64,000 nucleotides of DNA, from positions 64,001-128,000 of the forward strand of contig JBBRPR010000009.1 of the NCBI GenBank assembly GCA_038227875.1, in the 5' to 3' direction. A program made the translations under genes and the position numbers. Within the stretch, counting starts at the first letter, position 1; the number at the start of each line of letters is the position of its first letter. Below are positions 17,179 to 53,708 of this stretch, piece by piece. A model generated the notes under the pieces. The model was given only the letters and a program-made list of their open reading frames with translations. It was not told where the DNA came from and did no database searches. This DNA comes from Planctomycetota bacterium. Its GTDB lineage: Bacteria; Planctomycetota; SZUA-567; H5-PLA8.

Positions 17179-20100
17179 CTAATTCGAACTCTCAACGCGG
17201 AACGATTCGATCTTTACTTCCCCGTTCTCGTTGAGATTGTAGAGCAGGAAGTCGATGTGGCCGATGCTGGCGCGCGGCGTGAACGGCTGGTCGTAGACCT
17301 TCCAGTCGTTCTTGGCGGTCTTGAAGTCGTCCAGGTTGAGCGGGAAGCGCACATTCCGGTTCCAGCCGGGGCGGATGAAAATGGGGCGGCTTTCGTAGCC
17401 CAGCCATTCAGGTTTCGTTGAGAACAGCAGCGCGACGTTGAAGCCGTGGTTCAGCGACGAGTGAATGTCGACCACGATGGAATTGGCCGCGGCGAGATTC
17501 AGTTCAACGTTGCGCCCGGCCGCGGCCTTCATCTTGTCGCCGGACTGGAACGCGATCTTGATCGCCTTGAGCCCCGTCGCGCCGCTGGGGCCATCGACCA
17601 GCTCGAACTTCGCCGGATTGCCCCATTCCTGAATCGCCCAGACTGGATTGCCATCGTCGCCCACCGCGGCGCTGAAGGCGTCGACAATTTTTAGCGGCGG
17701 GCCATTGTAGCGATAGATTTTCTCAAACTGCGCCGCGCTCTCCGGGGGCGGCGGCATCTGCGGCGCGTCAGACCCGAGCGAATAGGCCAGCAGGTTTATG
17801 CCGAAGCGCAGCGAACCTTCGAGCATTTCGTCGGCGGTGAGGTCGGTGAGCGACGGTCGGCCGGCGATGTTGCGCGGATCGATTTCCAGACCGTCGGCGT
17901 AATCGTTGCGCGTGTAAATCAGCGCCGCGCGCGGCTTGCCGTCGCGGCCGGCGAGCGTGATGCCTTCCATGAATTCCTGACGGTACTTGTCGCCCGGCGG
18001 AACGCGGTAGCCCTTATAGCCGTGCGTCAGGTCGTAGGCGGAATGGAAAAGCGGGTGGGTCATTTCGAGTTTTTCGAGTTTCTGGCCGGGGAAGAGGCGG
18101 ACCATGTCTTTGCGCAGCGCGAGGTCGAAGCGTTCATCGCCGCTGGCGCCGGAATCGTTGAACCAGAGCGTGCCGCCATTTTCAACGTATGCGCGCATCG
18201 CGAGAAGTTCCGCGTCGCTGAACGGAATGGCGTAGTTGGCGGTAAAGAGCAGGAAGCGGCACGACGCCATGGCTTTGGGATCATCGAGCTTCACGGTCCT
18301 GACTTCGGCTTCGACGTCCGGCAGTCCGCAACGTTCGCGGAAGGCGGTGGCGAGATTGAAGAGCGCCGTCGGCGAGGAATTCCAATCGGCCGCATGCTGC
18401 GCCAGGCCGAGGTTGACGCGCAGCACCGTGCCGCCAGGAGGACCCCAGTGCGGCCGGTCGTGAGATTCTGCGCCGCTGTGGGCCAGCGCCGCGCTGGAAT
18501 TTTTGCCGCCGCGGTCGAGTGTCAATCCATCGATCGCCGCTTGAACGCTGGCCTTGCCGCCGGAGCCGCTGCCGAACCCCGAGGCGCCGTGGCCCGACCC
18601 TGTTCCTGAAGTGCCGCTGCCCGCAGGTCCGTGTCCACCGAGACCGCCGGAGCCCAGCCCGAGTCCGGCCAATTCGGTTCCGCCACCGCCGGTACCCTTG
18701 CCGTTGGTCAATCCGGAGACGCCGAGCGGTCCATTGCCGCGCGGACCGGGCGGACCTTCATCGCCGATGCCTTTGCCGTTTCCGATTCCCGTGCCGTTGC
18801 CGTGCGCCTGCGCGACGGAGCCCGCGCCCGATCCGGCGCCGAGCGGATCAGCATCGAGCGGCGCATCGCCGGGGCCGGGACGTCCGGAGCCGGAACCTGT
18901 GCCGCGACCGTTGCCGATGCTGCGCGAGGTCAAACTTTCGCCGTTGGAACCTGGCAGCCCATTGCCGAGTCCCGAGGCCACGCCGCCAGTCTGCGAACCC
19001 ATGCCCAATCCATGCCCGGAACCGCCCGACGCAATACCGATGTCGTTTCCGCCGGTGCCACGTCCGCCTAATGTGCCGATGCCGCCGGGAAGTCCGCGCG
19101 GCGAACCCGGACCGCCGTCGCCATTTCCAGAGGCGATGCCTGTTCCATTGCCGCTTCCCGCGCCCGTTCCTGCGCCGTTGCCGGCGGCAGCGGTACCCGT
19201 GCCGGAACCGTTGCCATTTCCATTTCCGCCCGTTCCAGATCCGTTGCCACCGAGATCCAATGGCGCATCGCCGATGCCGTGTCCGTTGCCAAAACCCGCG
19301 CCACCGGTTCCCGTTCCACTTCCGCCGCGTCCGGAACCGATCGCTCGACCTGCGATACCCGAGCCGTCGCCCTTTCCGCCATAGCCGTTGCCGAGTCCGC
19401 CGGGTCCGCCAAATCCGTGATTGCCCGGACCCGCGCCGCGTCCGATGCCGTCGCCGGTTCCGTTACCGCTCCCACCCAGTCCCTCGCCACTGCCCAGCCC
19501 GCGGCCGGTTCCGGTGGCGGTCGTCAGTCCGTGTCCGCCGCGCGGCAACGTGCCTTCGCCGCGCGGCAACGTGCCTTCGCCGCCCAGTCCATTCGCGCCA
19601 GCGCCGGAGATCGACGCGCCGTCTTTGCTCCCGCCTGCTCCGGAGCTGGTGGTCGTTTTGCCAGAGTTTCCGGAACTCGCGAGACCTTCGCCCAGAACCG
19701 GGCCGGCGTCGAGTGCGTCGTCATCGCCACGGCCGACGAGCAAACCGGTTTTGCGATTCGATTCGGTGCCTGCGACGGCTGATCCGCGTTCCGCTCCGCT
19801 ATCGCCCCAGGCCTTGCCGTTTTCCGGAACCACTGCGCCGCTGGTGCCGGAAATGTAGCGCGTGGCCGGTGCGGAATTTTTGATCTCGGGTCCCAGCGCC
19901 GAAGCCCCGGGATTGGAGGTCGCGGCAATCGACGTGACCGTCGCTGGCGCGGAGGGTTCGCCGAGCGTCGACTTCGCCGGCCCGCGCGTTTCGAGTTTGG
20001 GAGCATCGGGCGACGGCGCGCCAACCGTGTCCGCGATGAGCGGGATGTCGTCCATTGCCAGGGGCTGACCGTCGCCGCGGGCCGCACCAGGCGCGCCGAC

Positions 20101-23100
20101 GAGGACCACCTTTTCATCCGGGTTGCCGCCGCCGGCTTCCGTTTTCGCCGCGGCCGCCGACGAGGCTTGTTTCGTGCCCGGACCATTGCTGCCGGCGGGA
20201 AGTTCGATTTTCGAGGTCGTAAGCGGAACGTGCGCGGCAGCGGGAGCTCCGGCGGGTTCCGGCTTCGCCGCCGGGACCAGCGGTGCCACGCCGCCGGGGT
20301 CGTCGTTCATCGCCAGCGCTTCGTCGGGTCCGCCCGTGGACGGACCGCGTTCGAAAGCCGGACCGCCGCCCGCGGGGGCCGCGTCACCCGCGCCTGCTTT
20401 TTGAATCGCTGCCGCCGCAGCCGGTCCGCCGGGACCGTTGCCGCCGTCCTTCAATCCTGCCAGCGCGCCATTGGCGTTTTCTTTTCCGCCACCGAGCGCC
20501 GCCAGGCCGTCGCCGCCGCGCGGACCGGCTGCGGCAGGCGTGTCGTTGACTGCGCCGGCTGCTCCTCCATCAGCCTCTGTCGCGCCTCCGCCGTCGTCGA
20601 GCTTGGTCAGATCGATGTCCATGCCTTGCGACGCTTCGACCGAGCCAAATGAATCGTCTTTGCGGGACTGCGGGATGACGATGAAAAAGAACAAGCCAAA
20701 GTGGAGCAGTCCCGAGTACGCGGCGACGCGCACCCAGCGGCGCTTGACCAGTTTGCGCACGAAGACCGCGCAGATCATCAGTGGGATAATGATCAGCAGT
20801 GTCCACCAGTCGAAGCCTTCGGTGTGCGGCGTCGGCGTCGCGCTGATCCGGTGCGAGTGGACGACCGTGGCGTGAATTGTCTGCCGTTCCGAGCCGCTCT
20901 CCACGACGATCAAAGTCTGGTCGCCGTCCTCCGAATCGGTGAGCGCGCGGATGTGGAATTTCGCCTCGCCGCGTCCCGGCAACACGAACGATTTTTCCGG
21001 AGCGGCTTCGGCGTCGCGGATCAATTCGGCGCTGATATGCGCCATCCCGGCGGTCGGCTCGCAGTGCGCGCGGATCGGCAGCGGTTCGTCGGACTGCGAA
21101 AAGACCGTCACGGTCACCGGCTTGTCCGGCTGGCCGTCGTAGACATTCAAGACGACTTCAATCGGCGTGACGTGAAACGGCGGCAGCGGAATCGGGTAGA
21201 CGACCTGGAACGCGACTGGAATCTCCACCGCGCCCAGCCGCGAGACGACTTTCACGCTGGTCTTGTAGATGCCATCCTGCGCCGAATCTGGCACGCGCAG
21301 TTCCAGCGCGACCTCCGCGTCGCCGCCGGGCTGCAGCGTTGTGGCGCGCGTCAGAATTTTCAGCGCGTCTTCAGCGAGATGGATGGTGCGGACGAGCGGC
21401 TTGGTGGGCGGCGCTTCGATCGCGGCGATCAGCGACGTTGGGCGCACTCCCTTAAAGGTAGCGCGAAAGGCGAGCTTGCGCGTCTGCCCGGGGAATATCG
21501 ATCCGAAATCAAGCGCGGTGGCCGAGAGATTCAATTCCGGCTGAACGACATTGGCCGTCCAGCGCACAGCCGCGTCGGCAGCGTTTCCGTGGAGCGTGAT
21601 GGTTCCCGATGTCGAGCCGGCTGGAGCGTCGGCGGGAAGTTTGAGCGCGACCCGCGCATCGTTGGGCTTGGATGCATCGACGATGACATTCGACGCGGCG
21701 GAATTCACACGGACGGACTGCGCGTCGCCCCCGCCAAGTTTCCACGACAACGTTTGCGCGGCCGCGTCACCGGGTTCGAGTTGCCCGAAGTTGAGATCGC
21801 CGCCGAGTTCGAACCACTGCGGCTGAACGTCGACGCGGACCAGAACGCGGCCGAGTTCCCGCCCGCTGCCACGCAGCACGACTTCGCGCTCCAACGTTCC
21901 GGCGCGGCATTCGGGACTTACGGTAAAGGTGAAGTTGGCCGCTTGACGGTGTTCATCGAGAACGAACGGTTCCGGAGCAGCGGTCAGTTTCAGGAGCTCG
22001 GATCGGGGCACGCTCAGCGGTGCCGCATGCCCGCGGGGCAACCGCAGCAGCGAGGTCCAGTACGCGCAGTCGTTCAGTTCCACGCCAGCCAGCCGCGTCC
22101 GGCCACCGCGCGTGGCGAGTGGCAGCGACGCCTGGATTTGCGCACCGGGCGCGACGGATCCGAGATCGAGCAGCGCAAAGCGGTTCAGCGCGAGTTCCGG
22201 CAACTTCACGCGCACATGCCACGGTACGCTGGCCGTGACCTTCGGCGCCTGTTTTTCGCCGTCGAGTTCCAGTTCGATCAGCCCGCCGTACGAGCCGGGC
22301 CCGAGCTCATCGGGAAGCGTGAGTTGCAGCGGCAGCGTTGCCGCTTCGCGGCTGGGGAGCGCGTGTCTGTCGTCGAGCAGGACAAGTTGCTTGGAAAGGT
22401 CGGTCATGTTCGCCGCAGTTTTCGACGTGAAGCGATAATTGCCGCCGGCGCCGCGCACACGGACGAGCAACTCGCCACTCACGCGTTCGCCGGCGAAATG
22501 AGTACCGAGATCCAGCGCGTGCGGCACGACCAGCCCGCGCGCGCTGCCGCGGACGAGCGTCCAATGCGCGCGGACTTCGCGGCGGAAATCTTCGCCCACG
22601 GCGCGCTTTCCCGACACTGTAGCCGTAATCACGCCGGTGGTCCCGACAGGCAAATCAAGCCCCGCGAGTTTGGCGACGAAGCCGGCGTAAATTCCATCGC
22701 CGGCCGTGCCGTCTTCGTGTGTGCCGTCGTCGAAGAGTATGGCGGCGAGTCGCTCGGAACGGTCGGCGATCTCCAGCGAGACGTCGACGGTGGCTCCGGC
22801 CAGCGGCGTCGCGCCGTCGGTCAGCGAAAGTCCGATGCGCGGGTCGTCGGGATCGATTTCGACGGTGCCGGTGGCGTCGGTCGCGGCGCGGAAGAAGAGC
22901 GGGTAGAGCGAGGTGTGCGCGGAGGCTTCCAATCGCGCGGATGCACCGGCCGGCCACTGTGCGGTCCACGCGCCGGGCGGCGGCGAAATCTTGTGAAAGA
23001 CGGGGTGTTCGGCGGCGCTGGTGGTCTCGGTTTCGCCCTTTGGCGACTTTACCGTCAGTGTGCCGCTGGATTCCGACGAGACGGACGCGACCAGTGTGCG

Positions 23101-24153
23101 GCAGGTGCTGTCGGTCGGAAAAACAAGCGCGCGGGGCGCGGCAGCGGGGAACGGGCCGGAGAAAATCGTCCGCCCTCCGGCGATGCCCGCAGCGATCGCG
23201 CCGTAAATGCGGATCAGTTCGCCGCCGCTGGCCGCAGCGGAGAACGTGCCGCCCGTATCGTCGGCGATGCGCTGCAGCAGATCGCGATCGGCATCCGGTC
23301 CCAGCGCAACGGTGTGGATGGGAATGCCCGCCGCGCGCGCCAGGCGATGCGCGTCGCCGTAGATGCCGGGTTCCTGCACGCCGTCGGTGAGCAGCACGAT
23401 CGCGCCGGTGCCGGAGCCCTTCCCGGGACCGTGGAGCATCTCCACGGCCTTGCGGATGCTGCCGTCGATATCTGTGAAACCATCGGCCGTGATGGCTTTG
23501 AGCGCGCGTTGAAATTTGTCGTCGTCGCTGATCGGTGTGAGCGGGAGCAATTCATGAACCTGCGAGGCGAACTGGATAATACCGATGCTGCCGATGCCGC
23601 CGGACGTTTTTCCCGTCGCGATAAAGCGCCGAGCCGCTTCGATGCGCGACTTTTCCGGATCGGACGTCGTCATCGAGCCAGATCCGTCGAGCAGCAGTAC
23701 CACGCTGGGTAGTCCAGTACGGAACGAGACGGCTTTGCTCAGCCGCGTTTCGCCGGCTTCGTTGCCTCCCGGGAACGACCAGCGCAGCAGAATGTCGTAC
23801 GCCTGCTCGTCGTCCTTCTTGAGCGACGTGAGTCCGCGCAGATGCGCGATGAATTCATTGGCGCGCGTCGGAGAGGGCCAGATCAGCGCGCGCGCCGACT
23901 CCGGAGCGTCGGTCTTTGGCGCCGGCTGTCCCGGTTCGATCAACCACGCTCGGAGCTGCGGCAACACGCCTTGCGCGCCGTCCGTTTTCAAATTCGGCTT
24001 GAGGATCAGTTCCAGCGCATCGTCCTGCCCGAGCACGACCGTCCCGCTGCCGGGAAGCGTAATTTCGTCCGCGCAGAACGCGTGAACGCAGCAAAGCACC
24101 GACGCGAGCGCCACGAGACGCAGCAGGACTGTCGCTGGGGTTCGTTGCGCCAT
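17179..24153 (-). CDS. Giant VWA / Ig-like / TM / Gly-rich / DUF4159 multidomain protein
   Basis: Signal peptide; VWA MIDAS DGSGS..T..D; LFDDGTHEDGTAGDGIY; repeated LDFG/LDLG Ig-like units; two TMs; Gly-rich tract; DWN...LEKLEMTHPLFHS...RFGINLLAYSL (DUF4159-like). Confidence 0.85.
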   Translation of the reverse strand: MAQRTPATVLLRLVALASVLCCVHAFCADEITLPGSGTVVLGQDDALELILKPNLKTDGAQGVLPQLRAWLIEPGQPAPKTDAPESARALIWPSPTRANEFIAHLRGLTSLKKDDEQAYDILLRWSFPGGNEAGETRLSKAVSFRTGLPSVVLLLDGSGSMTTSDPEKSRIEAARRFIATGKTSGGIGSIGIIQFASQVHELLPLTPISDDDKFQRALKAITADGFTDIDGSIRKAVEMLHGPGKGSGTGAIVLLTDGVQEPGIYGDAHRLARAAGIPIHTVALGPDADRDLLQRIADDTGGTFSAAASGGELIRIYGAIAAGIAGGRTIFSGPFPAAAPRALVFPTDSTCRTLVASVSSESSGTLTVKSPKGETETTSAAEHPVFHKISPPPGAWTAQWPAGASARLEASAHTSLYPLFFRAATDATGTVEIDPDDPRIGLSLTDGATPLAGATVDVSLEIADRSERLAAILFDDGTHEDGTAGDGIYAGFVAKLAGLDLPVGTTGVITATVSGKRAVGEDFRREVRAHWTLVRGSARGLVVPHALDLGTHFAGERVSGELLVRVRGAGGNYRFTSKTAANMTDLSKQLVLLDDRHALPSREAATLPLQLTLPDELGPGSYGGLIELELDGEKQAPKVTASVPWHVRVKLPELALNRFALLDLGSVAPGAQIQASLPLATRGGRTRLAGVELNDCAYWTSLLRLPRGHAAPLSVPRSELLKLTAAPEPFVLDEHRQAANFTFTVSPECRAGTLEREVVLRGSGRELGRVLVRVDVQPQWFELGGDLNFGQLEPGDAAAQTLSWKLGGGDAQSVRVNSAASNVIVDASKPNDARVALKLPADAPAGSTSGTITLHGNAADAAVRWTANVVQPELNLSATALDFGSIFPGQTRKLAFRATFKGVRPTSLIAAIEAPPTKPLVRTIHLAEDALKILTRATTLQPGGDAEVALELRVPDSAQDGIYKTSVKVVSRLGAVEIPVAFQVVYPIPLPPFHVTPIEVVLNVYDGQPDKPVTVTVFSQSDEPLPIRAHCEPTAGMAHISAELIRDAEAAPEKSFVLPGRGEAKFHIRALTDSEDGDQTLIVVESGSERQTIHATVVHSHRISATPTPHTEGFDWWTLLIIIPLMICAVFVRKLVKRRWVRVAAYSGLLHFGLFFFIVIPQSRKDDSFGSVEASQGMDIDLTKLDDGGGATEADGGAAGAVNDTPAAAGPRGGDGLAALGGGKENANGALAGLKDGGNGPGGPAAAAAIQKAGAGDAAPAGGGPAFERGPSTGGPDEALAMNDDPGGVAPLVPAAKPEPAGAPAAAHVPLTTSKIELPAGSNGPGTKQASSAAAAKTEAGGGNPDEKVVLVGAPGAARGDGQPLAMDDIPLIADTVGAPSPDAPKLETRGPAKSTLGEPSAPATVTSIAATSNPGASALGPEIKNSAPATRYISGTSGAVVPENGKAWGDSGAERGSAVAGTESNRKTGLLVGRGDDDALDAGPVLGEGLASSGNSGKTTTSSGAGGSKDGASISGAGANGLGGEGTLPRGEGTLPRGGHGLTTATGTGRGLGSGEGLGGSGNGTGDGIGRGAGPGNHGFGGPGGLGNGYGGKGDGSGIAGRAIGSGRGGSGTGTGGAGFGNGHGIGDAPLDLGGNGSGTGGNGNGNGSGTGTAAAGNGAGTGAGSGNGTGIASGNGDGGPGSPRGLPGGIGTLGGRGTGGNDIGIASGGSGHGLGMGSQTGGVASGLGNGLPGSNGESLTSRSIGNGRGTGSGSGRPGPGDAPLDADPLGAGSGAGSVAQAHGNGTGIGNGKGIGDEGPPGPRGNGPLGVSGLTNGKGTGGGGTELAGLGLGSGGLGGHGPAGSGTSGTGSGHGASGFGSGSGGKASVQAAIDGLTLDRGGKNSSAALAHSGAESHDRPHWGPPGGTVLRVNLGLAQHAADWNSSPTALFNLATAFRERCGLPDVEAEVRTVKLDDPKAMASCRFLLFTANYAIPFSDAELLAMRAYVENGGTLWFNDSGASGDERFDLALRKDMVRLFPGQKLEKLEMTHPLFHSAYDLTHGYKGYRVPPGDKYRQEFMEGITLAGRDGKPRAALIYTRNDYADGLEIDPRNIAGRPSLTDLTADEMLEGSLRFGINLLAYSLGSDAPQMPPPPESAAQFEKIYRYNGPPLKIVDAFSAAVGDDGNPVWAIQEWGNPAKFELVDGPSGATGLKAIKIAFQSGDKMKAAAGRNVELNLAAANSIVVDIHSSLNHGFNVALLFSTKPEWLGYESRPIFIRPGWNRNVRFPLNLDDFKTAKNDWKVYDQPFTPRASIGHIDFLLYNLNENGEVKIESFRVESSN
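19536..19577. repeat. Exact 21-bp in-frame tandem duplication (GEGTLPR x2)
   Basis: cgccgcgcggcaacgtgcctt x2. Confidence 0.85.
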
Positions 24154-27448: not shown

Positions 27449-27589
27449 GCAATTGCCTCCGGCCCCAGAGCTTTCCCTAATATGTATACCGCTATCTCGG
27501 CGCAACGTTGCGCGAAATCGGGGTTCGTACCTTATATAGGAAGACGCCGCGAAACGGAGTGTCACGATGGAAACTTACTGCGGCGGAGC

Positions 27590-27702
27590 ACCCTAGGACC
27601 GAATTCGTCCTAGGGTACCCAGTGGTGGATTATAACCATAGAGACTACAGTCTCTATGGTCAGGCAAATTTGCCTGACCCTGGCGACCCTTGTCGCTAGG
27701 GT
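27590..27702. repeat. Cluster of four near-adjacent hairpins/palindromes
   Basis: accctaggac/gtcctagggt (27590-27616); accatagagact/agtctctatggt (27635-27660); ggtcaggcaaatttgcctgacc (27658-27679); accctggcgac/gtcgctagggt (27677-27702). Confidence 0.85.
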
Positions 27703-28805
27703 AACTTTTTTCCCCATTTGAGTACTAATTCCGACGCCACCGCGACGGAGCGCAGGTCGAACGTCTGCGTATAATCGCGATAAGGCTCAAACGCGGCATC
27801 CGCTTGAAGTTTACGCAGCTTTTCCTCGGCCGGGATTGGCTCGCTGAGCAGTTCGAGCAACGCGGTCTGAAAATCCCAGAGCGATGCGTTGTCGTGTCCT
27901 TCCTGAAGCAGCGCCGGCGACGGAATGAGCCGCGGCCGCCGGTTTTTTGGCGGAGTCCATGTGCGGACGAGCTCACGGAGCCGCTGGTAGTCCTCGCGAA
28001 AGCTCGCGCGCTGGTCTTCGCTTGGCATTGTGCCGCCAAGGCGCTCGAAGATTACCGATTCGACGTGGGGGCAGCGTTCGAGCGCGATGGCGACGAGGTC
28101 GTAAACTTCCTCCGGCACCGCGCCGTCGTGGGTATCGCGCCGAAACTTTCCGAATTCGAAGTTCGACCACGATCCGCCGGAGACGTGAAGTTCGCGCACG
28201 CGCTGCAGCGGGTAGAGATCGAGCAGCGCATCGGCGCGGATGTCGAAGTTGAACATCTGGCAGAAAATGTTGTGAAGGTCGAGCAGTAGAAATCCGTCCG
28301 ACGGCGCGAGCAGTTCGTCGAGAAACGCGCCCTGTTCGCGGACGTCGTGCGGGCCGAAGGCGAAGGCAAGATTCTCCAGCCCGATCGGCACGCCGGCCGC
28401 TTCCCGCAACGTGGCCAGCCGAGCGCGGCCGAGTTCCAGCGTCTGCCGCGAGCGCGGAACGGGCAGCGGCGCGGAGTCGTGAAACGACGCGGTGGTCATG
28501 AAGCCGAAGTGTTCTGAAATGTGCGTGTAGCTCCGGCGACCCACTTCGCGGCCCAGATTTTCAAGCCAATGGTCCTGCTGCGGATGGTCTTTTCCGGAGA
28601 GCGCGGAGAACTGGACACCGTGGCCGAGGAGTAGTTTGGATTCAGAATAAAAATTGACCAGCTCGGCCAGCCAGTCCGGCTCGCCGGCCCAGCCGGTATC
28701 GAAGCTGTATTCGAGAATCTCGACCTGACCGGCTTCGAACAGTGGCAGTGATGCGGCGCGGAAATCGTCGTGCGCGTGCAGATTCAAACCGACGCGCACA
28801 GCCAT
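27696..28805 (-). CDS. DUF692 multinuclear non-heme iron-dependent oxidase (MNIO, ChrH-like)
   Basis: GHGVQFS, ISEHFGF, GLENLAFAF, LLDLHN, RELHVSGG, RRDTHD, IFER iron-ligand motifs. Confidence 0.93.
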   Translation of the reverse strand: MAVRVGLNLHAHDDFRAASLPLFEAGQVEILEYSFDTGWAGEPDWLAELVNFYSESKLLLGHGVQFSALSGKDHPQQDHWLENLGREVGRRSYTHISEHFGFMTTASFHDSAPLPVPRSRQTLELGRARLATLREAAGVPIGLENLAFAFGPHDVREQGAFLDELLAPSDGFLLLDLHNIFCQMFNFDIRADALLDLYPLQRVRELHVSGGSWSNFEFGKFRRDTHDGAVPEEVYDLVAIALERCPHVESVIFERLGGTMPSEDQRASFREDYQRLRELVRTWTPPKNRRPRLIPSPALLQEGHDNASLWDFQTALLELLSEPIPAEEKLRKLQADAAFEPYRDYTQTFDLRSVAVASELVLKWGKKLP

Positions 28806-28807
28806 CG

Positions 28808-29134
28808 TCAGCCTCTACCGCACGGCGGACAGTAATCGGGGGAATTTTCCGGCTTGGCTTTCGGCGTTGCCGCCGGGGCCGGCGTGACGCACTGTTTGGG
28901 CTGTGCGGTTTCGATACGGCTAGGGAGCACCTTCGGATTTTCAGTGATGGGTTGCTGAGTCGTGACAGTTGTCGCTGGTTTGACGACAATCGGCGCGGAG
29001 GGCGTCGTGTTCGGCACGTCGGCCGATTGCGCCTGCCCGCAGCCGCTCAGGAAAAGTGCGAGTCCCGCGCCGCCAATGATCTGGCCGATGTGGCTCGGGC
29101 GCATTTTCGACAGGATCGAGTTGGGAATCTTCAT
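28808..29134 (-). CDS. Putative RiPP precursor lipoprotein (ChrA-like, C-terminal CPPCGRG)
   Basis: MKIP start, lipobox FLSG-C32, Pro/Thr-rich linker, ends DYCPPCGRG; stop codon 2 nt before the MNIO start; GGAG RBS. Confidence 0.85.
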   Translation of the reverse strand: MKIPNSILSKMRPSHIGQIIGGAGLALFLSGCGQAQSADVPNTTPSAPIVVKPATTVTTQQPITENPKVLPSRIETAQPKQCVTPAPAATPKAKPENSPDYCPPCGRG

Positions 29135-29238
29135 GTTCAGCTCCTCCGCTTTTCTACTGTAGACCTCGCGGAGCGCACCTGGTTTCTAAGAAAATATGAT
29201 TCTTGATATCCGTTCATCCCATCGACTAACATCATGAC

Positions 29239-29814
29239 ATGCGTCGCAATCGAGTGAAAGTGAATCCTGAGAACCTCGTGCCCACCAATAGCTGGGGCAT
29301 TCCTGACTACTACGAGGATCAAACCTTCACGTGCAGAGGCTGCCAGGAGAAGTTTGTCTTCACGGCCAGTGAGCAGCGGGCCTGGTATGAGCATTTCAAA
29401 ATTCCCATCCATGCCGGCCGAGTGCGGTGTCCCGATTGTCAGGACGAGCACAAGGACGACATTTCGCTCAAGCAGCACTTTGACGAGGCCACGGAGCAAC
29501 TAAAAAGTCATCCCGACCACTGGGCCATCAACCTTGAGTTTGGCCGCCTGGCCGTGATGCTTCATGAATCCAGCGGCGGCGGAAAATATATGGATCGAGC
29601 GATCGCAGCGTTGAAACGTGCGCACGATTTGAACTCAAAAGCGCACGAAGCCGTCTACTGGCTGGGCCGCTGTTACGAGTTCACCGGAAACATGAAAAGG
29701 CAGAAGGAGTGCCTTTTGTCGTTTCTGGCGGCGACCGAATCGAAAAAGAAAGGCGAATTGAAGCGCCTGCGCAAAGACGCGGAGAATCGGTTGCTCAAAA
29801 TCTCCGGTGCGTGA
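29239..29814 (+). CDS. Zinc-ribbon (zf-trcl-like) plus TPR protein
   Basis: YEDQTFTCRGCQEKFVFTASEQ..WYE...RCPDC; C-terminal helical repeats (AVYWLGRCY). Confidence 0.75.
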   Translation: MRRNRVKVNPENLVPTNSWGIPDYYEDQTFTCRGCQEKFVFTASEQRAWYEHFKIPIHAGRVRCPDCQDEHKDDISLKQHFDEATEQLKSHPDHWAINLEFGRLAVMLHESSGGGKYMDRAIAALKRAHDLNSKAHEAVYWLGRCYEFTGNMKRQKECLLSFLAATESKKKGELKRLRKDAENRLLKISGA

Positions 29815-29821
29815 CGGCCTG

Positions 29822-32800
29822 TTATTTCGCCGTGCCCATCTTCCCCGATTTATTACTGTACGTCAGCGACTTGGGCGTTTGGTAAATCGCGCCGTTGAAA
29901 ATCACCGTAAGCACCACCGCGACGTTGGTCTTGGCGATGGGCAGGCTGGTCAGTCCCACCGCCGCAAGCGGACGCGTGAAAAATCCTTTCGTCAGCTTCA
30001 CGGTGAACTTTGCCGTCTGCGCGGCCGTGCTGCCTTTGGCGCTGCGGAATTGCAGCTTGAACATGTTGGAGCCGCGCGGCGTGTTGCCTTTGGCGTCGAG
30101 CGTAAAGGCCACGGTGACCGCACTGACGTCGACGTATACTTTTTGCCCGCTGGCGGAGAAACCGCTTTGTATCGGCAGCGTTCCGGCGAAGGAAATCGTA
30201 TCGCTGCCGGAGCGGGTGAAGTTGAGCTTGATCGATGTCTTCGACGCATCCAGACGGCTGAACGTCGTCGCGGGTTTGTTCCCCAGCGGTGTGGAATTGG
30301 GATCCAGCGGGTCGGTGCCGGCTGCCGTCTCGAAGGAATCGGAGAAGCCGTCGCCATCGCTGTCCTTGCCGCTGCCGACCAGCGGCGCTTTGACCGTGAC
30401 GTTCACGCTGCTTTGCACCGTGTTGCCGTTCACGTCGCTCACGGTCACTGTCGCCGTGAAAGCGCCGGCCGTCGCATAGGAGTGCGAGATCGTCGCGCCG
30501 CTGCCGCCGACGCCATCGCCGAAATCCCATGTATAGGTCAGCGTCGCATTGCCTTCAGCAGCAGCGGACGCGAACTGAATCGCCTGGCCGATTCCCGCGA
30601 CGCTGGGTGTGGCGGTGGCCGGAGAAACGAGCGACGGCTGAGCGGTGACCACGACCGTAACGTTGGCGGTGACGGACGACGTGCCGTCGGACACCGTCAC
30701 GACGGCAATGAAAGTTCCGCCGTCGGAGTAGCTATGCGACACCGTGGCGCCGTTGCCGTTCGTGCCGTCGCCGAAATTCCAGGTGTACGTCAGTGGCAGC
30801 GAAAGATCGCTGACCGCGTTCACCAGGAACGCGACGGGTGCGCCGGCGCTGGCGGGATTGGGCGTGGCGGTCACCTGGCTCAACACACGCACGGGAACTT
30901 GCGGCCCGATGTTGACGACCACCGTCTGCATCGACGTTCCGGCGACATTGGAGGCCGTGGTGCCGACGTTCGCATTGGTGGTGATGGTGGTCGGGATGCC
31001 GGAGAACGTGTCGCCAGCGAAGTTCAATCCGGCCGGCAGCGGAGCGGCAGTGAACGTGAACGGCCCCTGGCCGGTGGCGGTGATCGTGTAGCTGAAGAAA
31101 CTGCCCACATTTCCGCTCGCTGTTTTGGGGCTGGTGATGACCGGCGGGGGAACGAGTTTCCGGAACGCCGCATCAGCATCCACCAGCCCGTACCCCGAAA
31201 ACGGATCAGGGCCCGCGAAGGCCGGCGCGACGGTTGCATCCCGAGCGGTGGACTGAAATGTCGAGGCCAGTACCGCCGGCGAGGTTTTCGGCGCGGCTTC
31301 CATCAGCAACGCGGCGACGGCCGCGACATTGGGCGCGGCGCAGGACGTGCCGAGAAAATTTGGGAAAAACGTCGTGTCGACGCCATCGGGCGCGGCGATG
31401 TCCGGCGAATTGCGCAGCATCGGCGCGTTGGGAAGTGGATTGCCGGCCGCGTCGAAATAGAAGGGAATGCCGTTGGGGCCAAAGCCGCCCAGCGACGAGA
31501 ACGATTCCGGACGCAGGGTGTTCGCCTGCAGGTCCGCGAAATTCATCGCGCCGACGGCGATGCAGTCCTTGCAGGTCGGATGCCCAAAGGCGCTCATGCC
31601 ATTGACCCCGCCAGACGGAAACGAGACATCAAGATTGGTGTCGCTGATGACCAGGCGGATGACATTGCCGCGCACGCCCTGGAAATGATCGAGCGCCAGG
31701 TAGACGGTGGTGTCAGCGCCCTTGTTGACGTAGTCCAGGATTTCCACCGGATCGCCCTGCGGCGCGCCAACTGTGCCCTGTGGTGCGGTCGAGGAGGCCA
31801 GCGGTTTTCCGATGGCCGGTGTGGCATAGAGGTATAGATCCAGATCCGCCTGCGATCCGGAGCCGAGATTGAAACTGGAGTACGGCTGATTCCATTCCAG
31901 CACCACGGTCAGATCGTTGTTGTGCGACAGACGGATGGGCAGAAAGCCGGGCGTCGAGGTGCCGATGCCCCAGTTATGAAAATCCTTGCCGGTGGGCGTC
32001 GAGGCGGAATCGTCGGTGGTCTGTGCCGGATTGACGGTCGTGTACGTGGCGATGATGCCATTGGTGCCGTCGTTGCCGGTCGCGGAAAAATGCGGAACGC
32101 CGTTGGCCGCGTTGGTGCTGATCGCCTGCGCGAGCGGGCCGTCCTGAAAATAAGGCTCATCGAGGAACCCGATGTCGTCGACGGTGATCGTGGATTTGGC
32201 TGCCGTGCGCAGCGCGAGCAGATTCGTCGCCGCGGCTGTCTGCGTGCCGCCCGCGCTGGCGAAGGCCAGCTTGGAGCCGGGGGCGATGTCGTAAATCAGT
32301 TCCATCATCGCTTCGCCTTCGTCGGAGCCCTTGCCCGGACCGGCATCGACGAGCTGAAACGTGGTCGGCAGATCGCCATTTTTCTGAGGTGTCGTTCCGG
32401 AGACAAACGCATTGGGAGGCGTGCCTTGAACCAGCATCGTCGAGCCAATGACCGGGTTGGTATCGATGACCGAATCGGAGACGACGCCCACCGTCTGTCC
32501 CTTCCCGGAAACGCCGAACGTGGAACGAAGCTTCGCCGCGTTCAGCAGCGGGTCGGCGGCGTTGTCCACCTTGCCCTGACGGCGCCGCTTGCCGGCCTGC
32601 AGCTGGATCGATTGAATCGCATCGATCTTCGCCAGCGCATCCAGCTGGGGAACGGTCGCGATGGCATTGATGGTCCGCCACTGCGGCGCGGTGTCGGTAA
32701 CCGTCGCGCCGGTTGCCTTGATCTGCGTCACGATGTCCGCGGTGACCGCCGCGTCGATGCGCACGGCAAACGTTTCCGGCGATGAAGTCGCCGCCAGCGC

Positions 32801-33013
32801 GCGGCCGTGCGCTACCTTCACGGATTGCGCCGCGAGCGCCGCGGTGACCGTGCCGGCACGAAAATCGTTGAGCGCCGGAATCAGCCGGGCATCGACCTTG
32901 AAGGCCAGAGCGCCGAGCGCCTGGGTCTTCGGGTTCTCCGCGTGGTCGGCGGCGGAAACGCCATTGAGCAGAACGGTCAGAAGCGCGATGACGAAAAGGA
33001 TGCGAATGAACAA
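29822..33013 (-). CDS. Secreted S8/S53-like serine peptidase with PKD domains
   Basis: Signal peptide and prodomain; GKGQTVGVVSDS, DEGEAM, SATGND, GTSCAAP; two YTW(N/D)FGDG PKD domains; DSDGDGFSD motif. Confidence 0.9.
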   Translation of the reverse strand: MFIRILFVIALLTVLLNGVSAADHAENPKTQALGALAFKVDARLIPALNDFRAGTVTAALAAQSVKVAHGRALAATSSPETFAVRIDAAVTADIVTQIKATGATVTDTAPQWRTINAIATVPQLDALAKIDAIQSIQLQAGKRRRQGKVDNAADPLLNAAKLRSTFGVSGKGQTVGVVSDSVIDTNPVIGSTMLVQGTPPNAFVSGTTPQKNGDLPTTFQLVDAGPGKGSDEGEAMMELIYDIAPGSKLAFASAGGTQTAAATNLLALRTAAKSTITVDDIGFLDEPYFQDGPLAQAISTNAANGVPHFSATGNDGTNGIIATYTTVNPAQTTDDSASTPTGKDFHNWGIGTSTPGFLPIRLSHNNDLTVVLEWNQPYSSFNLGSGSQADLDLYLYATPAIGKPLASSTAPQGTVGAPQGDPVEILDYVNKGADTTVYLALDHFQGVRGNVIRLVISDTNLDVSFPSGGVNGMSAFGHPTCKDCIAVGAMNFADLQANTLRPESFSSLGGFGPNGIPFYFDAAGNPLPNAPMLRNSPDIAAPDGVDTTFFPNFLGTSCAAPNVAAVAALLMEAAPKTSPAVLASTFQSTARDATVAPAFAGPDPFSGYGLVDADAAFRKLVPPPVITSPKTASGNVGSFFSYTITATGQGPFTFTAAPLPAGLNFAGDTFSGIPTTITTNANVGTTASNVAGTSMQTVVVNIGPQVPVRVLSQVTATPNPASAGAPVAFLVNAVSDLSLPLTYTWNFGDGTNGNGATVSHSYSDGGTFIAVVTVSDGTSSVTANVTVVVTAQPSLVSPATATPSVAGIGQAIQFASAAAEGNATLTYTWDFGDGVGGSGATISHSYATAGAFTATVTVSDVNGNTVQSSVNVTVKAPLVGSGKDSDGDGFSDSFETAAGTDPLDPNSTPLGNKPATTFSRLDASKTSIKLNFTRSGSDTISFAGTLPIQSGFSASGQKVYVDVSAVTVAFTLDAKGNTPRGSNMFKLQFRSAKGSTAAQTAKFTVKLTKGFFTRPLAAVGLTSLPIAKTNVAVVLTVIFNGAIYQTPKSLTYSNKSGKMGTAK

Positions 33014-51344: not shown

Positions 51345-53708
51345 ATGGCCAAATCGATTCTCATTACGCAATGTTTGCAGCGGGATTTTATTGATCCGTT
51401 GTTGCCGCATGATCCGCTGCCGAATTGCCTGCATGTCGGGTATTCGGAGTCGGCGCGGTTGCTGGGGCATGATCCGGCGGCGGGGCCGATTGCGCAGTTG
51501 ATGCATTGGGCTCGCGCGCAGCGCGGCGATGACTTGGAGATCATCCATATTCGCGATTGGCACGACCGCAACGATCCCAAGCAGAGCGACCATCTGCGGA
51601 TGTTTGGCGAGCATTGCATCCAGGATACGCCCGGCGCGCAGCTGATCTTGAATCTCGATTCGGGCCTGGCGGGGCGGCGCAACGAGCGGACGGTCGATTC
51701 GATTGCGTTGAACGACTTCGAGCAGACGACGCTGGCGGCCCAGCTCGACGCGGCTATTGGAGGCGATCGCGAGAACGTGCGCATCGGCGTCGTCGGCGTG
51801 TGGACGGAAGCGAAGGTGAGCTTCCTGCTCTACGATTTGAAGACGCGCTACAACATTCAGGAACTGGCGACCTGCAGCGCGCTGACGGCCAGCGCGTCTC
51901 GCGCGCAGCACTTCAATGCGCTCGAACAGCTCAGCCGGATTCTCGGCGTGAAGGTTTTCGACACCGTGGGCGACCTGGTCGGCTGGCTGAGCCCGGGAAG
52001 CAGCACGCAATTGCCTGGCGATAAAGCAACGTTCGGGCACCGCGTGCTGATGAAGGGCACCACCGCCACCCAGGTCGGAATGCCGGCGCTGACGGAGAGC
52101 GACCAGGACATTGTCGGGTATCTCTACCGCGACAGTTCGGCGGTGAATCTGGAGCCGCTGTCGGGCGGCTTTTCTGGAGCGTTGGTGTTTCGCGCGACAA
52201 GCGCCGATGCGCTGGGGCACCAGCAGGCGCCGTCGGTGGTGAAACTGGGGCCGAACAAATTGATCGGCGCGGAGCGCGTGGCGTTCGAGCGCGTCGAGGA
52301 GATTCTGGGGAACAACGCGCCGAGCGTGCGCGGCTTTGCGGAGATCGGATCGCGCGCGGGGATCAAGTATTCGTTTGCGTCGATGGGGCAGGGAAAGGTC
52401 CGGTCGCTGAAGGGGCTCTTTGATGGCAATCAGCCTGTGGAAAAAATCGACGGCGTGCTGAAATGCGTGTTCGGGGAAGTGCTGCGGCCGTTTTATTCTG
52501 CGGCGCGCTACGAGCGGATGCCGCTGCTGGAGCACTATCGGTTCTCGCCGGAATTCGCGCCGCACGTGCGGAAGAACGTGGAGGCGATCGTCGGCACTGC
52601 CGCGGCGGGAAAATCGCGCCTGGAGTTTGCGGGCGGATACGTCGCCGACAACCTGTGCGGATTCTACGAATCGTTTTTGAAGAACGCTCAGCCGGATCCC
52701 GGCGAATCGCATTTCGTCTCGTATGTGCATGGCGATTTGAATGGTGCCAACATTCTCGTCGACGGGCGTGACAACGTCTGGATCATCGATTTCTTCCACA
52801 CGGCACCGGGGCACGTGCTGAAGGATCTGGTGAAGCTCGAGAACGATCTGCTCTACATCTTCACGCCGATTCCGGATCGCGAAACGCTGGCCGAAGCGCT
52901 GCTCATCACGCGGGCGCTGCGGGCGGTGGAGGATCTGGCCTCACCGCTGCCGGAAGCGATTGCGGGAATCAAGTCTCCGCAGTTGCTGCGCGCGTGGGCG
53001 ATGTTGCGGACGCTGCGTGGATTCGTGAGCGAGTATTGCAGGTCGGACCGGCATCCGGTGCAGATGGACATTGCGCTGCTGCGCTACGCGGCGCACACGT
53101 TGTCGTTTGATGAATCCTCACCGCTGCAAAAAGAATGGGCGCTGGCGGCAGCGTGCGGCTACGCGGAAGACGTGGTGAAGACGCGGCGCGCGGAAGAAGT
53201 GTTGCGCATCGATTGGATCGGGCTGCCCGGGCCAAAAGGCCCGGCCGGGCGTTTGGGAATCACGATCTGTCCGGGCCGGCGGGATCGCGGGCGGGATTTG
53301 GCGGCGGATCTGGAGGTGCTCGCGAACGAAAAAGTTTCGCGCGTGATTTGCATGGTGACCGACGCGGAACTGGAGTGGGCCGGCGTGCGCGAATTGGGCA
53401 GCGCAGTAAACGCGCGGGGGATGCAGTTCCGGCATTTCCCGGTGGCCGACCAGAACGTGCCAGCGCTCGACGACACGGTGGATCTGGTGCGCTGGATCCT
53501 GGCGGCGCTTCACGCGAAAGAAAACGTGGTGATTCATTGCATGGGCGGCTTGGGGCGCAGCGGGACGCTGGCGTCGTGCGTGCTGACGGCGCTGGGATCG
53601 GACGCGGCCTCGGCGATTGCGGCGGTGCGCAGTTCGCGCGGCCCGCGCGCGGTGGAGGTGCGGCGGCAGGAGGAGTTTGTGGAGGGGTTTGCGGGGCAGA
53701 AGGGCTAA
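51345..53708 (+). CDS. Isochorismatase-like / APH-type kinase / CX5R phosphatase fusion
   Basis: QCLQRDF, HIRDWHD, EHC, GVWTEAKV; LSGGFSGA, VVKLG, HGDLNGANIL, IDF; HCMGGLGRSG. Confidence 0.88.
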   Translation: MAKSILITQCLQRDFIDPLLPHDPLPNCLHVGYSESARLLGHDPAAGPIAQLMHWARAQRGDDLEIIHIRDWHDRNDPKQSDHLRMFGEHCIQDTPGAQLILNLDSGLAGRRNERTVDSIALNDFEQTTLAAQLDAAIGGDRENVRIGVVGVWTEAKVSFLLYDLKTRYNIQELATCSALTASASRAQHFNALEQLSRILGVKVFDTVGDLVGWLSPGSSTQLPGDKATFGHRVLMKGTTATQVGMPALTESDQDIVGYLYRDSSAVNLEPLSGGFSGALVFRATSADALGHQQAPSVVKLGPNKLIGAERVAFERVEEILGNNAPSVRGFAEIGSRAGIKYSFASMGQGKVRSLKGLFDGNQPVEKIDGVLKCVFGEVLRPFYSAARYERMPLLEHYRFSPEFAPHVRKNVEAIVGTAAAGKSRLEFAGGYVADNLCGFYESFLKNAQPDPGESHFVSYVHGDLNGANILVDGRDNVWIIDFFHTAPGHVLKDLVKLENDLLYIFTPIPDRETLAEALLITRALRAVEDLASPLPEAIAGIKSPQLLRAWAMLRTLRGFVSEYCRSDRHPVQMDIALLRYAAHTLSFDESSPLQKEWALAAACGYAEDVVKTRRAEEVLRIDWIGLPGPKGPAGRLGITICPGRRDRGRDLAADLEVLANEKVSRVICMVTDAELEWAGVRELGSAVNARGMQFRHFPVADQNVPALDDTVDLVRWILAALHAKENVVIHCMGGLGRSGTLASCVLTALGSDAASAIAAVRSSRGPRAVEVRRQEEFVEGFAGQKG

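Follow-up and report, generated by a model that had tools for sequence, protein, structure and literature searches.

The window analysed here, a 64,000-nucleotide stretch of DNA from a Planctomycetota bacterium, contains an intact, self-contained two-gene unit encoding a small precursor peptide and an MNIO enzyme. The phylum is borne out by homologues of the genome's GluRS, all 10 named hits (53-79% identity) coming from Planctomycetota; DUF1559 (PF07596), tried as another marker of the phylum, gave short N-terminal hits only. By analogy with characterised systems, the cassette probably directs the formation of a lipid-anchored peptide with a chryseobasin-type modification, a so-called DAG-RiPP. 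Lipid-anchored, enzyme-cyclised peptides were first described as a class in 2026 (PNAS 2026, PMC13056109); the main text of PMC13056109 draws its lipidated chryseobasin-type members from Bacteroidota, with Planctomycetota appearing only among small enzyme clusters. The cassette is not a new kind of system but adds a member from another phylum to a known class, which would extend DAG-RiPPs with chryseobasin-type chemistry to Planctomycetota. Being compact and fused, and having a natural CPPCGRG core, it also offers an easy co-expression test.

Layout of the cassette and its surroundings

Both genes lie on the minus strand. The precursor gene (28808-29134), recognised from its ORF, its orthologues and alignment A3, encodes 108 residues comprising a lipobox signal peptide, a Pro/Thr-rich linker of about 67 residues and the C-terminal core DYCPPCGRG; the MNIO gene is a 369-aa ORF at 27696-28805. 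The precursor stop codon TGA (28808-28810) is followed by two bases (28806-28807) and then by the ATG of the enzyme gene, and this 2-nt gap suggests translational coupling. A Shine-Dalgarno sequence, GGAGGAG, can be read from the sequence at 29141-29147 (minus strand), 6 nt 5' of the precursor ATG. These coordinates confirm the arrangement reported in a preliminary description, in which a 108-aa lipobox ORF ends 2 nt before the MNIO gene, and its naming of the locus as a chryseobasin-like MNIO system is borne out by the enzyme's matches to PF05114 and MNIO_ChrH together with the CPPCGRG precursor just upstream. The spacer 3' of the cassette (27566-27695, minus strand) folds into four hairpins in succession (RNA fold -69.3 kcal/mol, z = -6.1) and is likely to be the end of the transcription unit; a pattern scan for promoters and terminators yielded nothing usable. 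Partial copies of this spacer occur elsewhere in the same genome.

The genes neighbouring the cassette encode TPR, zf_Tbcl+TPR and PKD/S8 proteins, and no neighbour gene is conserved across 10 related loci. The flanking TPR genes were considered as MelA1-like substrates and rejected, neither carrying the motif at its end. An epimerase and an M42 peptidase of the chr type are both absent from the locus. The earlier statement that no protease is adjacent holds for the directly adjoining genes, but 0.7 kb upstream, past a divergent gene, lies the gene of a 1063-aa PKD protein that partially matches Peptidase_S8.

The cassette is real and, as judged from its sequence, probably functional. It is extremely improbable that it represents a decaying remnant of horizontal transfer, unexpressed or inactive. 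Its rarity in the phylum would fit such a history, a ChrH-like gene (>300 bits) being found in 3 of the 301 sampled Planctomycetota genomes and in none of the seven sampled genomes of the same family, but neither ORF is interrupted, no putative ligand has been lost, the precursor has a strong Shine-Dalgarno sequence and the spacing of the genes suggests coupled translation. Moreover, the functional ends are kept in three fused enzyme orthologues (92, 80 and 66% identity) and in two precursor orthologues.

The enzyme, its C-terminal domain and the partner question

Sequence comparison puts the enzyme in the ChrH/DybH subfamily. It matches the Pfam family PF05114 (MbnB_TglH_ChrH) with 6.8e-31 and 107.9 bits (cut-off 25), and its best NCBIfam match is NF050165 (MNIO_ChrH) with 340.1 bits, which covers residues 5-364 of the 369 in the protein and positions 4-360 of the 363 in the profile; the runner-up family, BufB, reaches 91 bits. 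The genome's own BufB gene lies on another contig. The score is below the 600-bit equivalog cut-off of NF050165, as are those of the characterised MelH (326.7 bits) and of the Bacteroidota MAG homologues (371-489 bits), so the group that the cut-off delimits is narrower than the functional subfamily. HMM comparison and phylogeny, a check proposed in the preliminary description, place the enzyme inside the ChrH-like subfamily but apparently outside the Bacteroidota ChrH/DybH clades. In the trees, which included MelH (L010) and Bacteroidota homologues but not ChrH and DybH themselves, the ChrH-like rows (102 or 50) split from the outgroup MNIOs (five or three) at 100% support, with the window enzyme among them and apart from the clades of Bacteroidota homologues. 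Identity is 48% to MelH and 40-44% to the Bacteroidota homologues retrieved. The window enzyme is of the fused form and sits in a four-member clade of its own, beyond which its nearest relatives are split into a core and a small C-domain protein.

The MNIO catalytic core is a TIM barrel predicted to span residues 1-281 (27963-28805), as delimited by Pfam, NCBIfam, alignment A1 and an AF2 model. It is followed by a Pro/Arg-rich linker (residues 282-305; 27891-27962) of pLDDT 63-72 without secondary structure, and then by a C-terminal four-helix domain (residues 306-364), assigned from the AF2 model and MelHc-type homology, which together with the tail and the stop codon occupies 27696-27890, all on the minus strand. 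The AF2 model (pLDDT 88.4, pTM 0.89) contains the barrel, the linker and the helical domain, whose helices run over residues 306-320, 326-335, 337-346 and 351-364. The top nine Foldseek hits in the PDB are TglH, MbnB and 3BWW, with E values from 2e-15 to 1.9e-10. The putative iron ligands are H62, H99, E144, D176, H207, D224, H226 and E254. The recognisable iron-ligand motifs reported earlier are indeed present: H62, E98/H99, E144, D176/H178/N179, H207, D224/H226 and E254 are invariant among the 15 sequences of A1, and at the conserved His, Asp and Glu positions the aligned TglH and 3BWW have identical residues. Six of them (H62, H99, D176, H207, D224 and H226) are offset by 3-4 from H65, H102, D179, H210, D228 and H230 of DybH, a correspondence mapped by position only; mutation of these DybH residues abolishes or derails the reaction (bioRxiv 10.64898/2026.10.27.762324).

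The C-terminal domain is homologous to stand-alone MelHc-type proteins, is encoded by a separate downstream ORF in relatives, and has library relatives of 48-115 aa in 76 of 86 cases. The preliminary description had regarded the helical extension after a Pro/Arg linker as a departure from ChrH; the extension is present and, by analogy with MelHc, its functional importance is supported, but it is no departure, as the ChrH profile (363 positions) covers residues 5-364 of the window enzyme and a C-terminal helical bundle is common to every ChrH-family member, ChrH included (PMC13056109). Our survey shows that fusion or splitting of this domain has occurred many times across the subfamily. Among the related enzyme loci, a same-strand ORF ending CP.CG.. 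was found in 46 of 86 unique loci, and 10 of the 45 other unique precursor-bearing loci have lipobox precursors, spread over several enzyme-family clades. The spread of the lipobox and the repeated fusion and splitting of the C-terminal domain both bear on substrate recognition in the subfamily.

The lack of an adjacent partner gene had likewise been noted as a peculiarity of this locus. None appears to be needed, since ChrH and DybH are active without a partner or ChrI, and MelH requires nothing but MelHc, whose counterpart is fused in the window enzyme (PMC13056109); the absence is real but does not set the locus apart. The earlier label of ChrI as an RRE protein has to be corrected, ChrI being a DUF1772 membrane protein according to PMC10214503. 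The genome search for a ChrI homologue suggested earlier was run and gave no PF08592 (DUF1772) match in the 88%-complete genome; ChrI, dispensable according to PMC13056109, was rejected as a partner. We consider it very unlikely that the enzyme depends on a partner or recognition protein whose gene lies elsewhere in the genome, unlinked to the cassette, as MbnB depends on MbnC and TglH on TglI. Most characterised MNIOs do use partners, the genome sequence is incomplete, and an HvfC-like gene adjoins the BufB gene mentioned above; against this, DybH works alone in vitro with multiple turnovers, the domain required by MelH is already part of the window enzyme, DUF1772 is unmatched in the genome and the 10 related loci share no neighbours.

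The precursor peptide and its probable lipidation

The precursor starts MKIPNSILSKMRPSHIGQIIGGAGLALFLSGC32, has an internal cysteine, C82, and ends SPDYCPPCGRG. Its last nine residues, DYCPPCGRG (100-108; 28811-28837, minus strand), contain the putative CPxCGxG modification site (C102, C105), assigned from the conservation in A3 and the literature, in which CPxCGxG is the site of macrocycle and hydantoin formation (PMC13056109; bioRxiv 10.64898/2026.10.27.762324). In A3, D100, C102, P103, C105, G106 and G108 are invariant. Two orthologues, P0122 (80% identity) and P0123 (46%), retain the MKIP start, the lipobox and the SPDYCPPCGRG end, with a variable middle. This conservation, like the CP.CG.. 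ORFs at related loci, marks the small ORF as no chance reading frame. The preliminary description had called the core a variant; the CPPCGRG reading stands, but it conforms to the family consensus CPxCGxG and recurs in four other loci. For DybH the 7-residue tag alone is enough, and an engineered CPPCGMG is modified, as described in PMC12636315 (section 10); position 6 of the motif is M in native substrates and L in HymA (CPGCGLG) among those tested, and the window precursor has Arg there. An N-terminal MxxPxxxL is unlikely to be a required recognition element, given that DybH makes do with a C-terminal tag of 7 aa. The extra cysteine pointed out earlier, C82, exists but is missing from P0123; a stalk cysteine was rejected as a conserved feature, since the share of lipobox precursors with at least one (8 of 13) does not clearly exceed what their length would give by chance.

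The precursor's assignment as a lipoprotein, already made in the preliminary description, is supported by residue conservation and by the lipobox rule, which we take to apply to L29-S30-G31-C32 and whose pattern fits. Residues 1-32 (29039-29134, minus strand), delimited from the sequence and A3, consist of an n-region with K2, K10 and R12, an uncharged hydrophobic stretch and the lipobox L-S-G-C32. G31 is found in all 10 aligned precursors and C32 in nine, and the genome encodes Lgt (180.8 bits), LspA (112.3 bits) and Lnt (250.3 bits), each above its cut-off. As regards sorting to the outer membrane, LolA (PF03548) was not found in the genome. Lipobox precursors of the subfamily give triacylated DAG-RiPPs, and the triacylation of DybA was demonstrated by mass spectrometry in 2026 (PMC13056109).

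Alternatively, the same modification might be made on a peptide cut by signal peptidase I at AQS|A, which would yield a soluble, unlipidated periplasmic or secreted peptide resembling ChrA or MelA1, both of which are signal peptidase I substrates (PMC13056109). The A-Q-S|A site does occur five residues past the lipobox, and signals of this type are found in many relatives, such as L021, whose CPPCGRG precursor lacks the lipobox cysteine. Nevertheless this outcome seems distinctly unlikely, because the G-C pair is kept in nine of the 10 aligned precursors, the AQS-A site is not shared even by the orthologue with 46% identity, the lipobox cysteine immediately follows the hydrophobic region, and all three lipoprotein-processing enzymes are encoded in the genome.

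Proposed pathway and comparison with known systems

We propose a pathway for the lipid-anchored product in which the cytoplasmic location is taken from the enzyme sequence and every reaction step from homology to DybH, MelH and ChrH. The MNIO, which has no signal peptide, would act in the cytoplasm as a single chain of tri-iron TIM barrel and helical C-terminal domain, the latter typical of its family, and would need no partner protein to bind directly to CPPCGRG at the precursor's C-terminus. An O2-dependent four-electron oxidation would convert the C105 thiol to a thioaldehyde, after which the backbone would rearrange to a hydantoin and C102 would close a small macrocycle, for a net change of -4 Da that leaves a free thiohemiaminal thiol. 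The modified precursor would then be exported by Sec, given a diacylglycerol on C32 by Lgt, cleaved after G31 by LspA and N-acylated by Lnt. This should yield a triacylated lipopeptide of 77 residues, with the modified tip at the far end of a Pro/Thr-rich, probably extended linker.

With the same chemistry, the end product might instead be a chryseobasin S-methylated like that of ChrA (+10 Da), in place of one with the free thiol of the DybA type (-4 Da). ChrA, and partly ArlA, are methylated on expression in E. coli, and the determinant is not understood (PMC13056109). This outcome is rather unlikely here, since the three Bacteroidota systems tested that are of the lipoprotein type or not from Chryseobacterium (DybAH, ChsAH and HymAH) as well as MelA1 give unmethylated products and no methyltransferase gene flanks the cassette.

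The metal- or oxidative-stress-binding role suggested earlier is supported by nothing at the locus. A more far-reaching joint reading, to which we attach little probability, is that the core and the MelHc-type domain were fused in this lineage independently of the Bacteroidota ChrH/DybH fusion, and that the product would hold its hydantoin macrocycle, with a free thiol and a basic Arg in the ring system, out on a long Pro/Thr stalk at the cell envelope. In that reading it would stay fixed in the envelope, where it might capture, say, a metal ion or a pyrophosphate-lipid, instead of being secreted as an antibiotic, and the non-conserved C82 of the stalk could cap its thiol via a disulfide.

Several known systems bear comparison with the cassette. 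The lipidated bufferins and oxazolins (such as NedA/NedBC) are also MNIO-modified peptides that use the lipoprotein pathway, but they belong to another MNIO subfamily, require a DUF2063-type partner, have EGKCG motifs, differ in chemistry and bind copper. With ChrA/ChrH/ChrI of Chryseobacterium the window cassette shares the enzyme subfamily with its C-terminal extension, the motif class and the core chemistry; the chr cluster includes genes for ChrI (DUF1772), for an epimerase and for an M42 peptidase (PMC10214503), all three missing here. ChrA differs further in having a signal peptidase I signal and an S-methylated product, and ChrH in that the window enzyme, at 340 bits, stays under the 600-bit NF050165 equivalog cut-off.

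The MelA1/MelH/MelHc system of a Melainabacteria MAG (L010) belongs to the same ChrH-like subfamily (48% identity) and has the same C-terminal domain, needed there for activity, with a -4 Da product formed on a C-terminal CPACGMG. That domain is a separate protein in the Mel system and fused here, and the substrate there is a 34-kDa TPR protein with a signal peptidase I signal, in contrast to the small lipoprotein of the window. The DybA/DybH system of Dyadobacter crusticola (PMC13056109) comes from Bacteroidota, not Planctomycetota, and the Bacteroidota homologues retrieved, 40-44% identical, fall in other clades. Its core is CPACGMG as against CPPCGRG here, DybA has about 50 residues in all (motif cysteines C44 and C47) as against 77 in the mature peptide here with its Pro/Thr-rich linker, and the KDD/Asp surface-export signature after the lipobox is absent from the window precursor. 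Like the cassette described here, DybA/DybH consists of two genes, that of the precursor lying directly upstream of that of the MNIO, and it combines a signal peptidase II signal and lipobox cysteine, a C-terminal CPxCGxG, a fused helical domain and no partner gene with the product expected here, a -4 Da macrocycle and hydantoin on a triacylated peptide.

A minus-strand precursor–enzyme cassette of the ChrH type

The cassette consists of a precursor ORF of 108 aa (28808-29134, minus strand; stop codon TGA at 28808-28810) and, after two bases, a directly following MNIO ORF of 369 aa (ATG at 28805, end at 27696, minus strand); the sequence GGAGGAG lies 6 nt 5' of the precursor ATG. The precursor begins MKIPNSILSKMRPSHIGQIIGGAGLALFLSGC32GQAQSAD, continues after the lipobox as a Pro/Thr-rich stretch with one further Cys (C82), and ends SPDYCPPCGRG. 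The preliminary description of a 108-aa lipobox ORF ending DYCPPCGRG, 2 nt before a DUF692/MNIO gene, stands as written. The window is 61% G+C and crowded with spurious ORFs; the 108-aa ORF is considered a gene because two relatives keep its ends and the arrangement recurs at other loci. In both relatives (80% and 46% identity) the N-terminus MKIP..SILSKMR, the lipobox and SPDYCPPCGRG are kept, and the middle part diverges. The cassette is real and intact, and is probably active.

The enzyme matches PF05114 (MbnB_TglH_ChrH, 6.8e-31), and its top NCBIfam model is NF050165 (MNIO_ChrH, 340.1 bits; runner-up BufB, 91 bits). Residues 5-364 align to profile positions 4-360 of 363, nearly end to end, so the region described at first as a C-terminal extension belongs to the ChrH profile itself. 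The enzyme does not reach the 600-bit equivalog cut-off; on this model neither do the experimentally characterised MelH (locus L010, Melainabacteria SJ512; 326.7 bits) and four other homologues (303-489 bits). An AF2 model built from a 15-sequence alignment (pLDDT 88.4, pTM 0.89) consists of a barrel at residues 1-281 and four helices at 306-364, joined by a linker of low confidence (282-305); TglH, MbnB and 3BWW make up its nine best PDB fold matches. The putative iron ligands H62, H99, E144, D176, H207, D224, H226 and E254 are invariant among the 15 aligned enzymes and align to the same residues in TglH and 3BWW. They are offset by 3-4 positions from the ligands mutated in DybH of Dyadobacter crusticola, given in the 2026 preprint bioRxiv 10.64898/2026.10.27.762324 as H65/H102 (Fe1), D179/H210 (Fe2) and D228/H230 (Fe3).

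Relatives, fusion state and distribution

A word-index search with the window enzyme gave 476 relatives at E <= 1e-3. Among the 120 matches listed, P0001, P0002 and P0003 (92, 80 and 66% identity) share the fused architecture of the window enzyme, as do at least 11 more at 47-51% identity; the remaining 106 proteins (268-320 aa, 71-79% query coverage) are of the split form. In most of the loci inspected (14 genome loci and the best 80 of 115 confirmed metagenome loci), the C-domain profile matches a separate small ORF directly 3' of the core gene. An exhaustive search with residues 300-369 returned 86 cluster representatives: 76 are 48-115 aa, in four the matching segment is the end of a protein that has MNIO length or is partial, and six are long proteins with short matching stretches, regarded as noise. 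The flanks of 10 related loci have nothing in common; the unit comprises precursor and MNIO and, in some cases, a C-domain gene of its own.

Phylogeny placed the window enzyme within the ChrH-like group, which is separated from other MNIOs with 100% support both in a quick tree (LG+G4, 107 core domains) and in a more careful one (LG+C20, 53 core domains, bootstrap not fully settled). The window enzyme and P0001-P0003 form one wholly fused clade (100/99), lying within a nine-row group (94/85) with the split P0004-P0006 and P0095 (labelled Planctomycetota) and with L034, where a contig end truncates the enzyme ORF; this group joins the fused P0007 and P0009 (97/94). On the larger of the two trees (98 scored enzymes, loci L004-L100) the fused/split state changes at least 12-13 times, and fusion or fission has therefore occurred repeatedly; outside Bacteroidota, split forms predominate. 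Fused clades from Bacteroidota, like the clade that holds MelH, are placed elsewhere in the trees, and the fusion in the window is probably separate from that in Bacteroidota, as judged from a tree rooted by outgroup only.

The ten GluRS homologues that carry a name (53-79% identity) all come from Planctomycetota. Among 301 genomes sampled from the phylum, ChrH-like matches above 300 bits occur in only three (the host genome, G089 and G126; next best 125.5 bits) and in none of seven sampled genomes of the same family; the distribution in the phylum is patchy. Other contigs of the host genome carry two further bufferin-type MNIO genes, namely a BufB equivalog (C21:96444-97223, 361 bits against a cut-off of 310) adjoined by an HvfC-like gene, and a weaker BufB-like match (C109:5441-6226, 184 bits).

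An ORF with the exact end CP.CG.. is present in 46 of 86 unique enzyme loci. All 49 such ORFs are on the enzyme strand and 47 are flagged upstream, the flag of the other two being wrong owing to stop-to-stop ORF boundaries; one ORF ending CPRCGTY, 3.5 kb distant (L014), looks like a chance occurrence. The tally of 53 ORFs, duplicates counted, is CPACGMG 15, CPACGRG 9, CPPCGMG 6, CPPCGRG 5 (the window, L021, L029, L047 and L065), CPGCGLG 5, CPGCGMG 4 and others 9. By a crude pattern rule, lipoboxes occur, apart from the window, at 10 unique loci (L016, L029, L037, L045, L048, L070, L071, L078, L084 and L103, the last from the window's own phylum), and the L009 precursor is lipobox-like on visual inspection. 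Tandem precursors with differing cores, such as CPACGRG + CPPCGMG or CPACGRG + CPGCGLG, precede one enzyme at L007 and L008 (Bacteroidota MAGs) and L030. The precursor start M-[KRNQ]-[LI]-P-x-x-x-L (29111-29134 in the window; also L021, L029, L037, L045, L048, L071 and L103), with M1, P4 and L8 unchanged in all 10 sequences, is conserved, yet DybH needs just a 7-residue C-terminal tag.

Other features of the window

Behind the MNIO stop, a 130-nt spacer (27566-27695) forms four back-to-back near-perfect hairpins on the minus strand (-69.3 kcal/mol, z = -6.1). Two of the palindromes turn up again at a few further sites in the genome, and the spacer may represent a REP-like element or a cluster of terminators. 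The gene 0.7 kb upstream of the precursor, beyond a divergent zf_Tbcl+TPR gene (29239-29814, plus strand), encodes a PKD/TSP3 protein of 1063 aa (29822-33013, minus strand) that matches Peptidase_S8 partially; 10 related loci showed no neighbour of this kind. Downstream of a gene for a 1111-aa TPR protein, a 2324-aa protein (17179-24153, minus strand) has a VWA domain at its N-terminus and DUF4159 at its C-terminus, with a long low-complexity region rich in Gly, Ser and Ala between them. The 787-aa protein at 51345-53708 (plus strand), carrying TCAD9 (ternary-complex-associated domain 9), a DSP-PTPase-type phosphatase and an isochorismatase-like domain, may belong to a conflict or defence system.

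Proposed maturation and comparison with known systems

The two-gene anatomy, the enzyme's family, fold and ligands, the conservation of lipobox and motif and the presence of lipoprotein machinery are shown by the analysis. The 9.34-Mb, 88%-complete host genome encodes Lgt, LspA and Lnt; LolA was not found in it, and the residue at +2 after the lipobox Cys is Gly, not Asp. By homology, C105 and C102 would undergo a four-electron oxidation in the cytoplasm that generates a hydantoin and a macrocycle (-4 Da); Sec export and processing of C32 by Lgt, LspA and Lnt would follow; and the mature 77-residue product would bear its modified tip on a linker rich in Pro and Thr.

Each departure from the Chryseobacterium system flagged in the preliminary description is already in print, and all are therefore described properties of the ChrH family. 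A C-terminal helical bundle of ~7.8 kDa occurs in all ChrH-family enzymes, other MNIOs being without it; Cyanobacteriota have it as a protein of its own, MelHc, without which MelH is inactive (PMC13056109, PNAS 2026). A missing partner is likewise no departure: Bacteroidota clusters are mostly precursor and MNIO only, DybH alone is active in vivo and in vitro, and ChrH works without ChrI (PMC13056109). ChrI had been paired with an RRE; PMC10214503 gives it as a DUF1772 membrane protein without RRE, and the proposed genome search for a ChrI homologue found no DUF1772 in the 88%-complete host genome. The variant core falls within CPxCGxG, carried by precursors throughout the subfamily (PMC13056109), and, according to the preprint of that paper (PMC12636315), the 7-residue tag suffices by itself for DybH, and modification also takes place on an engineered CPPCGMG. 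Lipoprotein precursors are known from the DybA type, with an SPII lipobox and with triacylation shown by mass spectrometry ('DAG-RiPPs'), and Planctomycetota hold small clusters of ChrH homologues (PMC13056109). The subfamily is also treated in PMC12452194; a literature search for further work on it beyond these papers found none. The preliminary reading is largely right but not new. Such loci may already be listed in published datasets; the modest additions here are lipoprotein-type precursors in Planctomycetota, a natural CPPCGRG core and a fused enzyme among mostly split near relatives.
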